From Escherichia coli (lineage in GTDB: Bacteria; Pseudomonadota; Gammaproteobacteria; Enterobacterales; Enterobacteriaceae): a DNA stretch of 64,000 nucleotides. The notes under the pieces were generated by a model. That model worked only from the letters and a program-made list of their open reading frames with translations. It was not told where the DNA came from and did no database searches. This document shows positions 2,747 through 60,992 of this stretch, one piece after another (position 1 is the stretch's first letter; the number at the start of each line of letters is the position of its first letter). The stretch is from assembly GCF_001677475.2 (NCBI RefSeq), contig NZ_CP015229.1; one strand, 5' to 3'. Both the position numbers and the translations under genes were made by a program.

Positions 2747-2766
2747 GTTTATGTCCTTATTCAGAA

Positions 2767-4107
2767 TCAATGACGGCCGAAAACGGGACGTTTACGGTCA
2801 AAGGTCCAGCCGGGGATCAGGTACTGCATCGGACCTGCGTCGTTACGCGCACCGCCAAGCAGACGTTTATAGGCTTCATGCGCCTTTTGTACCTGCTCCC
2901 AGTCCAGTTCCACGCCCAGACCGGGCGCATCAGGAACGGCAATTTTTCCGTTTTTAATCTCCAGCGGATTTTTGGTCAGGCGACAATCTCCCTCCTGCCA
3001 AATCCAGTGGGTATCGATAGCGGTAGGATTACCCGGTGCCGCCGCACCCACATGGGTAAACATCGCCAGAGAGATATCAAAGTGGTTATTGGAATGGCAG
3101 CCCCAGGTCAGCCCCCAGTCGTCGCAAAGCTGCGCTACGCGGACTGCACCGGAAAGCGTCCAGAAGTGCGGGTCGGCAAGTGGAATATCTACCGCATTGA
3201 GCATCACCGCATGGCCCATTTCGCGCCAGTTGGTGGCGATCATGTTAGTCGCGACGGGCAAGCCGGTCGCCCGTCGAAACTCCGCCATCACTTCACGTCC
3301 GGAGAAACCCTGTTCTGCGCCACATGGATCTTCGGCATAGGTGAGAACATCATTCAGCCCTTTGCACAGATAAATGGCTTCATCAAGCAGCCATGCACCG
3401 TTGGGATCAACGGTAATTCGCGCATCCGGGAAGAGTTTCTTCAATGCACGAACAGTGTCGATTTCTTGCTCGCCAGGTAACACTCCGCCCTTAAGTTTGA
3501 AATCTTTAAAGCCATAGCGATCCTGTGAGGCTTCCGCCAGACGTACAACGGCTTCGCTGTTCATCGCTTTCTGATGCCGCAATTGATACCACTCATGGTT
3601 GCCCGGCGTATTTTCCAGATAAGGAAGATCGGTTTTGGTCCGATCACCGATATAAAACAGATAACCGAGGACGGTAATAGCATCGCGTTGCTTGCCTGGC
3701 CCTAACAGTTCGCAGACCGGAACATTCAGCGCCTTACCTAGCAGGTCAAGCAAGGCGGCTTCCAGCGCCGCCACGGCATTAACGCGCAATTCAAAAGTCC
3801 AGGCACCTTTGCCGAAGGTATCAAAATCGGCTGCCTGATTACCTTTATGCACCTGCTGGACCACTTTATTCAGGCGCGCAACTTCCTGGCCCAGAACCAT
3901 CGGAATAGCATCGACAAGCGTCTGATAAATCACCTCTCCGCCTGGCGCTTCACCAATGCCGGAATGTCCGGCATTATCGGTGAGTACCACGATATTGCGG
4001 GTGAAATATGCGTCATGTGCACCACCAATATTAAGCAACATGCTATCGTGCCCGGCGACCGGAATGACTTTCATATCAGTAATAACAGGACTGGATTGTG
4101 TCGTCAT
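2767..4107 (-). CDS. gudX: Glucarate dehydratase-related protein (GudD paralog), 446 aa
   Basis: ORF 2767..4107; strong similarity to adjacent GudD along whole length (e.g. [38 protein letters not shown] motifs); 4-nt overlap with gudD start. Confidence 0.92.
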
Positions 4108-4108
4108 C

Positions 4109-5461
4109 TTATTGCCCCGCGACAGGTTTCAGCTCGATACGCTTGATATCGCCCACCAGCACCAGGTAGCTCAGTACCGCGATTAAGGCATGAACACCAA
4201 CATAAATCAGCGCCCCATTAAAGGAGCCAGTCGTGCCAACGATATAACCAATTGCGATTGGCGTGACGATGCCAGAAATGTTACCGAACATGTTGAACAG
4301 GCCACCGGAAAGACCGCTGATCTCTTTTGGCGCGGTATCTGCCATTACTGCCCAACCTAGCGCCCCGATGCCCTTACCGAAGAAGGCCAGCGCCATAAAG
4401 CCGATGATCATCCACTCAACATTGACGTAGTTGCAGAACACCATCACCATCGACAGCAACATGCCCATTACGATCGGTGTTTTACGCGCAATGTTCAGCG
4501 ATCCCGTGCGGCGCATCAGCCAGTCGGAAATAATCCCACCCAGCACACCGCCGATAAAACCGCAAACCGCCGGAACGGAAGCCACAAAGCCCGCTTTCAG
4601 AATCGACATCCCACGCGCCTGCACCAGATAAACCGGAAACCAGGTAATGAAAAAGTAAGTCAGGGCGTTGATACAGTACTGACCGATATAAACGCCGATC
4701 ATCATCCGTGACCCGAGCAGCTGTTTGATCTGCCCCCACTTCACGCTGAACGGCACTTTAACTTTGGTATTTTGCTGATCCATATTGATCAGCGCGCCAC
4801 CCGCGGCGATGTACTCCAACTCTTTCTGATTTACACCCGGATGTTGATTTGGCTCGTGGATGACTTTCAACCAGATAAAGCTGATGACAATGCCCAGACC
4901 GCCCATAAAGAAGAAGACGTGTGACCAGCCCACTTCATGCGTCAGCCAGCCCATAATCGGCGCGAAGATCACCGTTGCGAAGTATTGAGCGGAGTTAAAA
5001 ATCGACACCGCCGTTCCCCTTTCCTGCGCCGGAAACCAGGCCGCAACAATGCGACTGTTGCCGGGGAAAGATGGCGCTTCAGCAAGCCCGACCAGGAAGC
5101 GCAGCGTAAACAGGGCAACGATAATGCCGAATCCACTAAAGATATCGACGAAGCCTTGCAGCAAGGTAAACATCGACCAGATAAAGATCGACCAGAAGTA
5201 GACGCGTTTTGAACCAAAACGATCCAGCAACCAGCCACCTGGGATCTGCCCGATAACATAAGCCCATGAGAAGGCAGAGAACACATAGCCCATTCCCACG
5301 GGATCAAGGCCGATATCTTTGGCCATTTCCGAACCGGCAATAGAAAGCGTAGCGCGGTCGCCGTAGTTGAAGGATGTGACGATAAACAACATCACCACTA
5401 TCCAGTAACGAGCATTCGTGCGTTTTTCCACACTGCTCGCAGCCTGACTTAAAGAACTCAT
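4109..5461 (-). CDS. gudP: MFS transporter for D-glucarate/galactarate, 450 aa
   Basis: ORF 4109..5461; hydrophobic multi-TM protein, MFS signature; position upstream of gudXD. Confidence 0.92.
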
Positions 5462-7473: not shown

Positions 7474-7516
7474 AAAGCAACCTCAATAAGAAAAACTGCC
7501 GCGAAGGATAGCAGGA

Positions 7517-7551
7517 ATAAAAAAAGGGAGCACTGTATTCACAGTGCTCCC
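7517..7551 (-). terminator. Rho-independent terminator of csrB
   Basis: Minus-strand hairpin GGGAGCACUGU..ACAGUGCUCCC followed by UUUUUUUAUU. Confidence 0.85.
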
Positions 7552-7884
7552 GGTTCGTTTCGCAGCATTCCAGCTACTTTTGTTGCTCCCTGCTCATCCT
7601 TGACAACTTTTCCTCTGGCCTTGCGGCCAATCGTTCGTCCTGAACTATTGCTTCCTGCTCACACCACCCCGATGTGATACTTCATCCTGAAGTGTCCCTG
7701 GCCTTCCTGACCCACCGAATCATCCTGACCGGTTCTCATTCTCCATCCTGGAGGTGTCCTTTAACGCGTCCTGCGTCATCCTCTTCGCTTCGTCCAGAAG
7801 CCTTTCCCTGAAACACCATCCTGGTGTGTCCTTCAGAAGTGTCATCATCCTGATGTTCACTTCGTTGTCTGACTCCCTGTCGAC
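7517..7884 (-). ncRNA. csrB: CsrB small RNA (CsrA-sequestering), about 368 nt
   Basis: Minus strand begins GTCGACAGGGAGTCAGACAACGAAG and carries about 20 repeated CAGGA(U/A)G / AGGA motifs (seen as catcctg/tcctg on plus strand); ends with hairpin gggagcactgt-gaat-acagtgctccc plus U7. Confidence 0.9.
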
Positions 7885-9667: not shown

Positions 9668-11032
9668 TTGATTACACATATTAGCCCGCTTGGCTCCATG
9701 GATATGTTGTCGCAGCTGGAAGTGGATATGCTTAAACGCACCGCCAGCAGCGACCTCTATCAACTGTTTCGCAACTGTTCACTTGCCGTACTGAACTCCG
9801 GTAGTTTGACCGATAACAGCAAAGAATTGCTGTCTCGTTTTGAAAATTTCGATATTAACGTCCTGCGCCGTGAACGCGGCGTAAAGCTGGAACTGATTAA
9901 TCCCCCGGAAGAGGCTTTTGTCGATGGGCGAATTATTCGCGCTTTGCAGGCCAACTTGTTCGCGGTTCTGCGTGACATTCTCTTCGTTTACGGGCAAATC
10001 CATAACACCGTTCGTTTTCCCAATCTGAATCTCGACAACTCCGTCCACATCACTAACCTGGTCTTTTCCATCTTGCGTAACGCTCGCGCACTGCATGTCG
10101 GTGAAGCGCCAAATATGGTGGTCTGCTGGGGTGGTCACTCAATTAACGAAAACGAGTATTTGTATGCCCGTCGCGTCGGGAATCAGCTGGGCCTGCGTGA
10201 GCTGAATATCTGCACCGGCTGTGGTCCGGGAGCGATGGAAGCGCCGATGAAAGGTGCTGCGGTCGGACACGCGCAGCAGCGTTACAAAGACAGTCGTTTT
10301 ATTGGTATGACAGAGCCGTCGATTATCGCCGCTGAACCGCCTAACCCGCTGGTCAACGAATTGATCATCATGCCGGATATCGAAAAACGTCTGGAAGCGT
10401 TTGTGCGTATCGCTCACGGTATCATTATCTTCCCTGGCGGTGTGGGTACGGCAGAAGAGTTGCTGTATTTGCTGGGAATTTTAATGAACCCGGCCAACAA
10501 AGATCAGGTTTTACCATTGATCCTCACCGGCCCGAAAGAGAGCGCCGACTACTTCCGCGTACTGGACGAGTTTGTCGTGCATACGCTGGGTGAAAACGCG
10601 CGCCGCCATTACCGCATCATCATTGATGACGCCGCTGAAGTCGCTCGTCAGATGAAAAAATCGATGCCGCTGGTGAAAGAAAATCGCCGCGACACTGGTG
10701 ACGCTTACAGCTTTAACTGGTCAATGCGCATTGCGCCAGATTTGCAAATGCCGTTTGAGCCGTCTCACGAGAACATGGCTAATCTGAAGCTTTACCCGGA
10801 TCAACCTGTTGAAGTGCTGGCTGCCGATCTGCGCCGTGCGTTCTCCGGTATTGTGGCGGGTAACGTAAAAGAAGTCGGTATTCGCGCCATTGAAGAGTTT
10901 GGTCCTTACAAAATCAACGGCGATAAAGAGATTATGCGTCGTATGGACGACCTGCTACAGGGTTTTGTTGCCCAGCATCGTATGAAGTTGCCAGGCTCAG
11001 CCTACATCCCTTGCTACGAAATCTGCACGTAA
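9668..11032 (+). CDS. ppnN: Nucleotide 5'-monophosphate nucleosidase (LOG-family), 454 aa; TTG start
   Basis: ORF 9668..11032 begins with TTG preceded by aaggag RBS; LOG-family PGGxGTxEE motif ([13 protein letters not shown]). Confidence 0.88.
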
Positions 11033-26053: not shown

Positions 26054-26259
26054 ACTTCCTGAGCCGGAACGAAAAGTTTTATCGGAATGCGTGTTCTGGT
26101 GAACTTTTGGCTTACGGTTGTGATGTTGTGTTGTTGTGTTTGCAATTGGTCTGCGATTCAGACCATGGTAGCAAAGCTACCTTTTTTCACTTCCTGTACA
26201 TTTACCCTGTCTGTCCATAGTGATTAATGTAGCACCGCCTAATTGCGGTGCTTTTTTTT
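26054..26259 (+). ncRNA. gcvB: GcvB small RNA, about 206 nt
   Basis: ACTTCCTGAGCCGGAACGAAAAGTTTTATCGG 5' end, G/U-rich tgttgtgttgttgtgtttg region, terminal hairpin gcaccgcc-taatt-gcggtgc plus T8. Confidence 0.9.
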
Positions 26260-29253: not shown

Positions 29254-29360
29254 GCCTGATGCGCTACGCTTATCAGGCCTACATAACTCCTGCAATATTT
29301 TGGATTTGCATGAGTTGTAGGCCGGATAAGGCGTTCACGCCGCATCCGGCATGAACCACG
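29254..29360. repeat. BIME: two REP units in opposite orientation
   Basis: gcctgatgcgctacgcttatcaggcctac (29254..29282) and gtaggccggataaggcgttcacgccgcatccggca (29326..29360). Confidence 0.8.
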
Positions 29361-30744: not shown

Positions 30745-30821
<77 letters not shown>

Positions 30822-30854
30822 ATTAAAATTTGATGAAGTAAAGCAGTACGGTGA

Positions 30855-30931
<77 letters not shown>

Positions 30932-30965
30932 ATCAAAATTTGATGAAGTAAAAGCAGTACGGTGA

Positions 30966-31042
<77 letters not shown>

Positions 31043-56029: not shown

Positions 56030-59396
<3,367 letters not shown>

Positions 59397-59461
59397 TCAG
59401 TAAAAGCGAATGGAGGGAGATTACACGAGATAAAGAACGCGAGCGACAGTAAATTAGGTGC

Positions 59462-59550
59462 AAAAAAAAACCTGCGCATCCGCGCAGGTTGGTGCAAGAG
59501 ACAGGGTACGAAGAGCGTACCGAATAATCTCACCAATCAATACCTCTGGG
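59462..59550 (-). ncRNA. omrA: OmrA (RygA) small RNA
   Basis: Minus strand reads CCCAGAGGTATTGATTGGTGAGATTATTCGGTACGCTCTTCGTACCCTGTCTCTTGCACCAACCTGCGCGGATGCGCAGGTTTTTTTTT, including terminator hairpin. Confidence 0.9.
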
Positions 59551-59664
59551 ATCTTGATTGTGGTCTGCGCGACGACTCTTCGCCAGCGAGAAAACGCAAA
59601 GGAATGAAGGGAAATGCAACGAGGTGTGTAAATTGTCGGTTACTGTTACAGATTGATGACCGGC

Positions 59665-59747
59665 AAAAAAAAACCTGCGCATCTGCGCAGGCTGGTGTAA
59701 TTCATGTGCTCAACCCGAAGTTGACTTCACCTATCAATACCTCTGGG
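59665..59747 (-). ncRNA. omrB: OmrB (RygB) small RNA
   Basis: Minus strand reads CCCAGAGGTATTGATAGGTGAAGTCAACTTCGGGTTGAGCACATGAATTACACCAGCCTGCGCAGATGCGCAGGTTTTTTTTT; shares 5' and 3' ends with omrA. Confidence 0.9.
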
Positions 59748-59960
59748 ATCACCACTTTAGCAACCTGAAGCCAAACGCCACCAGCGGTCAATCGCAACAG
59801 CGTTTCGCAAAGTGTAACCAAAGGTTTGCAATCTCTTTTTTTGTCTTACTTATTTGCGTTTGGCTCACATTACCACGATGAAAACACGCCGCCCCTTGAA
59901 CCAACGGGCGTTTTCCGTAACACTGAAACAATGTAAGCGTTTACCCACTAAGGTATTTTC

Positions 59961-60992
59961 ATGGCGACCATAAAGGATGTAGCCCGACTGGCAGGCGTTT
60001 CAGTCGCCACCGTTTCCCGCGTCATTAATAATTCACCCAAAGCCAGCGAAGCTTCCCGGCTGGCTGTGCATAGTGCAATGGAGTCTCTTAGCTATCACCC
60101 GAACGCCAACGCCCGTGCGCTGGCGCAGCAGACCACTGAAACGGTCGGTCTGGTCGTTGGTGATGTTTCCGATCCGTTTTTCGGTGCAATGGTGAAAGCG
60201 GTCGAACAGGTGGCTTATCACACTGGTAATTTTTTATTGATTGGCAACGGTTACCACAACGAACAAAAAGAGCGTCAGGCCATTGAGCAACTGATCCGCC
60301 ATCGCTGTGCTGCGTTGGTCGTCCATGCCAAAATGATCCCGGATGCTGATTTAGCCTCATTAATGAAACAAATGCCCGGTATGGTGCTGATCAACCGTAT
60401 CCTGCCTGGCTTTGAAAACCGTTGTATTGCTCTGGACGATCGTTACGGTGCCTGGCTGGCAACGCGTCATTTAATTCAGCAAGGTCATACCCGCATTGGT
60501 TATCTGTGTTCTAACCACTCTATTTCTGACGCCGAAGATCGTCTGCAAGGGTATTACGATGCCCTTGCTGAAAGTGGTATTGCGGCCAATGACCGGCTGG
60601 TGACATTTGGCGAACCAGACGAAAGCGGCGGCGAACAGGCAATGACCGAGCTTTTGGGACGAGGCAGAAATTTCACTGCGGTAGCCTGTTATAACGATTC
60701 AATGGCGGCGGGTGCGATGGGCGTTCTCAATGATAATGGTATTGACGTACCGGGTGAGATTTCGTTAATTGGCTTTGATGATGTGCTGGTGTCACGCTAT
60801 GTGCGTCCGCGCCTGACCACCGTGCGTTACCCAATCGTGACGATGGCGACGCAGGCTGCCGAACTGGCTTTGGCGCTGGCGGATAATCGCCCTCTCCCGG
60901 AAATCACTAATGTCTTTAGTCCGACGCTGGTACGTCGCCATTCAGTGTCAACTCCGTCGCTGGAGGCAAGTCATCATGCAACCAGCGACTAA
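59961..60992 (+). CDS. galR: Galactose operon repressor (LacI/GalR family), 343 aa
   Basis: ORF 59961..60992; HTH MATIKDVARLAGVSVATVSRVIN. Confidence 0.95.
   Translation: MATIKDVARLAGVSVATVSRVINNSPKASEASRLAVHSAMESLSYHPNANARALAQQTTETVGLVVGDVSDPFFGAMVKAVEQVAYHTGNFLLIGNGYHNEQKERQAIEQLIRHRCAALVVHAKMIPDADLASLMKQMPGMVLINRILPGFENRCIALDDRYGAWLATRHLIQQGHTRIGYLCSNHSISDAEDRLQGYYDALAESGIAANDRLVTFGEPDESGGEQAMTELLGRGRNFTAVACYNDSMAAGAMGVLNDNGIDVPGEISLIGFDDVLVSRYVRPRLTTVRYPIVTMATQAAELALALADNRPLPEITNVFSPTLVRRHSVSTPSLEASHHATSD

Follow-up and report, generated by a model that had tools for sequence, protein, structure and literature searches.

Tandem PrrF1/PrrF2 of Pseudomonas and Qrr1-5 of Vibrio are duplicated Hfq-dependent small RNAs (sRNAs) with a common seed. 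Like OmrA and OmrB of Escherichia coli, they have overlapping regulons and partly different promoters that serve different signals; their sequences, regulators and targets are unrelated to those of the Omr pair, and the resemblance is one of analogy rather than homology. Sibling sRNA sets have been reviewed elsewhere (PMC4211561). OmrA and OmrB (formerly RygA/RygB, SraE; Rfam family RF00079) bind Hfq, and their action needs both Hfq and RNase E; the conserved 5' end of the two RNAs pairs with ompT, cirA and ompR, as demonstrated by compensatory mutations (PMC2588501). Further targets are csgD, flhD, flgM, dgcM, fepA and btuB; the pairing with btuB is specific to OmrA and uses its centre, and OmrB can act as a sponge for RydC (PMC12692685, PMC13425233). 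Both genes are activated by EnvZ-OmpR, and the Omr RNAs repress ompR-envZ in a negative feedback (PMC5175337). At the level of transcription, a difference at position -12 has been shown experimentally to make omrA, but not omrB, sigma-S dependent, and a -12C to T change in omrA makes its promoter more than 10 times as strong and independent of rpoS (PMC4447067). An omrB promoter with the T-75C/A-68G change in box B2 is no longer activated by RstAB and responds to OmpR with severe impairment, and four conserved regions have been reported in the omrA promoter (PMC13425233). An 'ancestral duplication' has been proposed as the origin of the pair (PMC3318445, PMC12692685), and earlier work placed OmrA in the core and OmrB in the variable set in E. 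coli/Shigella (PMC3318445).

Our analysis concerns a stretch of 64,000 nucleotides of E. coli DNA (hereafter the window), the minus strand of which is matched twice by the OmrA-B model RF00079, both times over model positions 1-87 of 87 and with scores far above the gathering score of 40 bits. The copy that comes first in the direction of transcription (59666-59747, minus strand; 86.1 bits, E = 2e-15) is the 82-nt sRNA OmrB, with 100% identity to K-12 b4445, while the downstream copy (59463-59550, minus strand; 96.6 bits, E = 6e-18) is the 88-nt sRNA OmrA, with 100% identity to K-12 b4444; both genes equal the annotated genes of K-12 MG1655 at every base. They are flanked by aas (57216-59375, minus strand; a 719-aa ORF), 87 nt downstream of omrA, and by galR (59961-60992, plus strand; a 343-aa ORF), which is divergent from omrB and 213 nt away, both names being taken from matching E. 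coli records. The K-12 MG1655 record gives the order aas, omrA (b4444, 88 nt), omrB (b4445, 82 nt), galR in this same intergenic region, and the aas/galR flanks recur at most of the Enterobacterales omr loci compared. Over its full length the window aligns with K-12 positions 2,916,639-2,980,638 in a single block, at 98.16% identity and with 10 gap openings, which makes it DNA of a non-K-12 E. coli without rearrangement here.

The window shares with K-12 the identical RNAs and the order galR <-> omrB -> omrA -> aas, together with the promoter determinants (-12C vs -12T; T-75 and A-68) and the terminators, and differs from it at strain level only. The 585-nt aas-galR intergenic region carries six substitutions or indels relative to K-12, none of them within the annotated RNAs, and two of the six account for longer terminators: the T-tracts at 59462 (omrA) and 59665 (omrB) each have 9 T in the window against 8 T in K-12, where the ninth position is a C at omrA and one T is missing at omrB. 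We consider it virtually certain that the two look-alike stretches are omrB and omrA, paralogous Hfq-dependent trans-acting sRNAs descended from an old tandem duplication, the copied unit of about 200 bp probably including the promoter as well as sRNA and terminator; no evidence contrary to the identification of omrB and omrA was found. The pair is already known: it is a textbook feature, the same as in the reference, and it agrees with the RF00079 family in every respect that can be tested on sequence. An earlier note on this DNA had named the OmrA-B family, with absence of an Rfam OmrA-B match as its refutation, and had placed two RNAs about 200 bp apart on the minus strand, all of which holds, the 5' ends at 59747 and 59550 being 197 nt apart; it left open which copy is which, a point settled by the assignment of omrB to the upstream and omrA to the downstream copy. 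Its span of 59462-59800 has the right place, but the end at 59800 cuts through the omrB promoter, whose conserved upstream boxes reach to about 59824.

The repeat formed by omrA and omrB is real and far beyond chance, because a 15-mer is confined to the two loci, their ends and terminators match and their centres are unlike. The 15-mer, CCCAGAGGTATTGAT, is present exactly twice in the window with both strands searched, at the two omr 5' ends, against a chance expectation of about 1e-4 occurrences. Nucleotides 1-21 form the shared 5' target-pairing module, CCCAGAGGTATTGATAGGTGA in OmrB (59727-59747, minus strand) and CCCAGAGGTATTGATTGGTGA in OmrA (59530-59550, minus strand), which agree at 20 of 21 nt; the triplet GAT directly upstream is also common to both, and the family 5' end CCCAGAGGUAUUGAU-N-GGUG is found in both copies. 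At the other end the last 35 nt of the two genes have 32 identical positions. The distance between the 3' ends is 203 nt, and a 115-nt spacer separates the genes. Between the shared modules lie the copy-specific centres: nt 22-47 of OmrB (26 nt; 59701-59726, minus strand), predicted to fold into the stem-loop UCAAC-UUCGG-GUUGA, and nt 22-53 of OmrA (32 nt; 59498-59529, minus strand), with the predicted stem-loop GGUACG-CUCUU-CGUACC. When these centres are compared with each other, 1534 of 2000 shuffles equal or exceed the score of the real pair, which is the similarity expected by chance. The description in the earlier note of near-identical 5' ends and 3' terminator hairpins around differing middles is thus borne out in all three parts, the two hairpins also being recovered by a terminator scan.

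Each gene ends in an intrinsic terminator consisting of a GC-rich 9-bp hairpin and 9 T, at 59665-59693 for omrB and 59462-59490 for omrA (both minus strand), which according to the literature doubles as the Hfq-binding 3' module. All 45 distinct sequences (100%) keep the terminator helix paired, and 3 of the 8 base pairs covary, with changes on either side; the outer GGUG/CACC stem never varies in these sequences and is thus uninformative on covariation. RNAalifold detected no compensatory changes in the central stems of either the OmrA-type or the OmrB-type subset, because MAFFT does not hold these stems in register, and among the covariation signals that of the terminator alone is solid. Both RNAs fold more stably than their shuffles (z of -2.7 and -2.9). 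In the minimum free energy fold of OmrA, nt 1-15 are unpaired and are followed by an internal stem-loop and then the terminator; in that of OmrB the unpaired 5' end is limited to nt 1-6, with nt 7-9 and 12-15 paired. The terminator hairpin is present in both folds.

Two other readings of the region would deny one or both stretches the status of an sRNA gene. The stretch downstream of omrB might be a leader or attenuator of aas rather than an independent gene, given that omrA and aas are co-oriented, with aas starting only 87 nt past the omrA terminator, and that a terminator hairpin ahead of a gene resembles an attenuator; the corresponding region of Siccibacter gives a Leu_leader match, albeit a sub-threshold one (23.8 bits vs a cut-off of 50). 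We rejected this reading and regard it as very improbable, since omrA has a conserved promoter of its own with a defined -10 element and matches RF00079 from end to end, and since its transcript is described as a discrete 88-nt Hfq-binding RNA that acts on targets in trans, as established by compensatory mutations (PMC2588501, PMC4447067). Still more remote is the idea that the region encodes small proteins, even if mechanical calling gives overlapping ORFs of 32-78 aa on each strand (for example 59530-59682 on the minus strand, 50 aa, and 59604-59768 on the plus strand, 54 aa). ORFs as short as these are expected by chance and K-12 annotates none; the homologues range in length from 75 to 110 nt and differ by non-multiples of three; and the conserved positions are concentrated at the RNA ends and in compensating paired columns of the terminator, which is the pattern of an RNA and not of codons. 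On these grounds the protein-coding reading was also rejected, and the identification of the two stretches as the sRNA genes omrB and omrA stands.

The promoters of the two genes carry the determinants that have been described for K-12. Indexed from the transcription start sites, the -10 element of omrB is TAAAGT (59754-59759, minus strand), with -12T and of the sigma-70 type, and that of omrA is CACAAT (59557-59562, minus strand), with -12C and -13C and sigma-S selective, as described in PMC4447067. In the promoter alignment the omrB pattern TA..GT/T is kept in 10 of 12 genera and strains, and CACAAT is present upstream of omrA in 10 of 12 two-copy genomes. The cross-species promoter alignment of 12 two-copy genomes further delimits conserved boxes that are specific to each copy, in agreement with PMC13425233. 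For omrB these form an upstream activator region (59781-59824, minus strand) with the box TTGCGATTGACCGCTGG at -50 to -34 and the box CCTTTGGTTACACTTTGCG at -77 to -59, the latter containing T at -75 and A at -68 in the window. The conserved region upstream of omrA (59583-59650, minus strand) consists of TTGCGTTTTCTCGCTGG at -49 to -33, TCATTCC, GTTGCA and TGTAACAG at -100 to -93. A scan for consensus sigma-70 promoters detected neither sRNA promoter, since a good -35 element is absent from both, as expected of activator-dependent promoters.

That each copy has its own upstream region, as the earlier note had it, agrees with the separate promoters and unlike -10 elements found here and in previous work (PMC4447067, PMC13425233), with the refinement that the two regions are not wholly unrelated and have one collinear box in common. 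This box, TTGCG(A/T)TT-N5-GCTGG, lies at 59583-59599 (omrA, from -49) and 59781-59797 (omrB, from -50); TTGCGATTGACCGCTGG and TTGCGTTTTCTCGCTGG are identical at 13 of 17 positions with an offset of 1 nt. It is kept across genera and can still be made out in Serratia, Dickeya and Pantoea. When the upstream regions were aligned without gaps from their transcription start sites, identity was 27%, no more than expected by chance, and a local alignment of the omrA and omrB upstream regions was matched by 1018 of 2000 shuffles; only gapped global alignment, in which the real score for the two 115-nt upstream regions beats 2000 of 2000 shuffles, and the cross-species alignments reveal the box. The duplicated unit probably included the promoter, some 200 bp in all, because the upstream regions share the collinear box and their global alignment beats the shuffles. 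The box itself may be a common activator site, putatively for OmpR, that was inherited from the duplication.

The sequence of the window is consistent with the mode of action reported for these RNAs. CCAGAG, nt 2-7 of both Omr RNAs of the window, complements the published target motif CUCUGG (PMC12692685), and GUACGC, nt 31-36 of OmrA, complements the published OmrA-specific motif GCGUAC, as in btuB (PMC12692685, PMC13425233). With RNAduplex, Omr nt 1-9 (CCCAGAGGU) are predicted to pair with ompR positions -18 to -10 (ACCUUUGGG), just upstream of the start codon, with free energies of -16.9 kcal/mol for OmrA and -19.0 kcal/mol for OmrB that are reached by 2 of 200 and 1 of 200 shuffled seeds, respectively; the ompR leader used is that of K-12, as ompR lies outside the window, and the pairing is computational only. 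On the cirA leader the same program, a crude test, placed the optimum away from the published site, and 58 of 200 and 27 of 200 shuffles did as well.

From these data and the literature a model of the activity of the locus can be drawn, in which the identity with K-12, the anatomy, the promoter determinants, the terminators, the two lineages and the complementarity to ompR come from the sequence of the window, and expression, the dependence on Hfq, OmpR, sigma-S and RstA, and the effects on targets come from published experiments. Each sRNA would be transcribed from its own promoter and end at its own intrinsic terminator. EnvZ-OmpR would activate both genes, with omrA also served by sigma-S through -12C, and omrB transcribed by sigma-70 and responsive to RstA in multicopy; these activities are described in the literature and the corresponding determinants are present in the window. 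The single-stranded 5' end common to both (nt 1 to about 21) would form imperfect duplexes with many mRNAs, in or close to the ribosome-binding site or early in the coding region, the named targets being ompT, cirA, fecA, fepA, csgD, flhD, flgM, dgcM and ompR, and this pairing would repress translation and promote decay by RNase E; repression of ompR-envZ would close a negative feedback loop. The shared terminator hairpin and U-tail would serve as the Hfq-binding 3' module, a role known from the literature and one with which the window is consistent. The diverged centres would provide separate functions, with the GUACGC of OmrA pairing with btuB and OmrB sponging RydC.

The history of the pair was traced with Omr copies from about 30 Enterobacterales genomes, among the matches listed by an exact 15-mer scan of genome contigs, about half of which were chance matches in unrelated phyla; 46 copies were aligned. 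In these, nt 1-15 and 17-20 are invariant, an observation that is partly built in by the retrieval of the loci with an exact 15-mer. The centres of the Enterobacteriaceae copies (Escherichia, Citrobacter, Enterobacter, Kosakonia, Pluralibacter and two metagenome-assembled genomes (MAGs)) fall into two sets. All upstream copies are like OmrB of the window (z of 3.4-11.4) and unlike OmrA (z of at most 1.9), and all downstream copies are like OmrA (z of 3.7-12.7) and unlike OmrB (z of at most 2.3). Judged by their centres, these copies represent two orthologous lineages within the Enterobacteriaceae, and the duplication is older than those genera, because the upstream copies are always of the OmrB type and the downstream copies always of the OmrA type. 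The order of events given in the earlier note, duplication followed by divergence of the central region, is in keeping with the two centre lineages and the near-invariant ends of the 46 copies, and with published views (PMC3318445, PMC12692685).

Outside the Enterobacteriaceae the centres are assignable to neither the OmrA nor the OmrB type. Serratia grimesii (10379-10746) and Edwardsiella ictaluri (3475-3753) each have two tandem copies whose centres are similar to each other (z of 6.9 and 3.3, respectively) and unlike those of E. coli; as the paralogous centres are alike, this suggests a separate duplication or gene conversion in these lineages. At other Serratia loci one copy was seen, one of these loci being incomplete. 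In Pantoea stewartii (2747-4879) and a Pantoea MAG (647-2770), two Omr-family genes, a short one of 76 nt and a long one of 91 nt, stand about 2 kb apart, not about 200 bp, with other sequence between them.

The arrangement seen in the window is the rule in E. coli. The aas-galR segment was matched in 5,423 of 5,426 complete E. coli genomes, and the two-gene segment is present in one piece in at least 5,405 of the 5,426, the other 21 falling short of 80% coverage of it. One exception is E. coli A29 (NZ_CP028746.1, 1414-1795), where the aas-galR spacer measures 382 nt as opposed to 585 nt and holds a single omr gene, a complete OmrB body joined to the downstream flank of omrA (…GCGCAGGTTTTTTTTCGCACCTAATTTA), with omrA and its promoter lost; this is a deletion of one unit with the crossover inside the shared terminator. 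In E. coli AF60 (NZ_OZ547048.1, 537-1832) an IS200/IS605 element (tnpA) sits immediately behind the T-tract of omrB, ahead of the omrA promoter, and both sRNA sequences are intact despite the insertion. Single-copy loci were also encountered in a survey of other genera, which is a sample and not a census. Enterobacter sp. BIGb0383, Superficieibacter and Lelliottia have one copy with an omrB-type promoter and an OmrA-type body, which is the published 'chimera' (PMC13425233), and Shimwellia has OmrB only. The single-copy and chimeric Enterobacteriaceae loci (PMC13425233) have the aas-galR site, the 5' and 3' modules and the omrB-type promoter in common with the window, but carry one gene where the window has the full two-gene arrangement. 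In Siccibacter colletis (4050-4446) the sole omr gene in the aas-galR spacer is of the OmrA type and has an omrA-type promoter (CACAAT), and a search of that spacer for an omrB remnant found none at E up to 10; this locus contradicts the general statement that the omrB promoter is always retained (PMC13425233).

We propose, at about an even chance, that the 5' and 3' modules, being nearly identical, double as direct repeats and destabilise copy number, that most of the single-copy states could be products of deletion between them, with Siccibacter representing a different, non-homologous loss, and that the shared promoter box is a relic of a duplicated activator site. A crossover in the 5' repeat would join the omrB promoter to the OmrA body and so yield the published chimera, while one in the terminator repeat would leave OmrB only, with the junction exactly as in E. 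coli A29. Deletion between direct repeats necessarily retains the flank upstream of the first copy, and this would alone explain why the omrB promoter usually survives.

Recombination between the repeats also bears on how their ends have stayed alike, which might reflect concerted evolution through ongoing gene conversion rather than independent purifying selection on old paralogues. Such recombination does happen, given that E. coli A29 lost exactly one unit with a crossover in the terminator, and position 16 is the same in both copies of some loci (C/C in Enterobacter sp. Bisph1, A/A in Pluralibacter, G/G in Pantoea and T/T in Serratia and Edwardsiella). However, 11 of 13 other Enterobacteriaceae two-copy loci have A at this position in the upstream and T in the downstream copy, as does the window, and the differences UUACACC vs UUGCACC and A vs G on the loop side mostly track copy type, both of which frequent conversion would erase; moreover, the Omr 5' end is functionally constrained by its many targets (PMC2588501). 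We therefore consider concerted evolution an unlikely reason for the likeness of the ends, and retain the reading of omrA and omrB as old paralogues.

Several other RNAs were recognised in the window. CsrB (7516-7875, minus strand; Rfam 380 bits over the full model) corresponds to K-12 csrB, and GcvB (26054-26259, plus strand; Rfam 199 bits, full model) to K-12 gcvB, beside gcvA. Three tandem initiator-type tRNA-Met genes (CAU) at 30745-31042 (plus strand), with a spacing of about 110 nt, correspond to K-12 metZ-metW-metV. A match to Rfam ES036 (CssrF) at 29275-29317 (minus strand; 46.6 bits vs a cut-off of 37.6) lies, by collinearity, between tcdA and mltA, where the K-12 annotation has no RNA; the match possibly marks a 3'-end or terminator element of mltA.

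Of 60 complete E. coli records sampled, 59 have no RefSeq feature under the omrA/omrB match (59440-59860); the K-12 reference has both genes labelled. Recognition of the two genes from sequence alone adds value to annotation, because the automatic RefSeq annotation omits both in nearly all of the sampled complete E. coli genomes. It is established that OmrA and OmrB tie the EnvZ-OmpR envelope-stress system to outer-membrane composition, iron uptake, motility and biofilm formation, and the pair is likewise an established model for duplicated sRNAs that split regulatory inputs.
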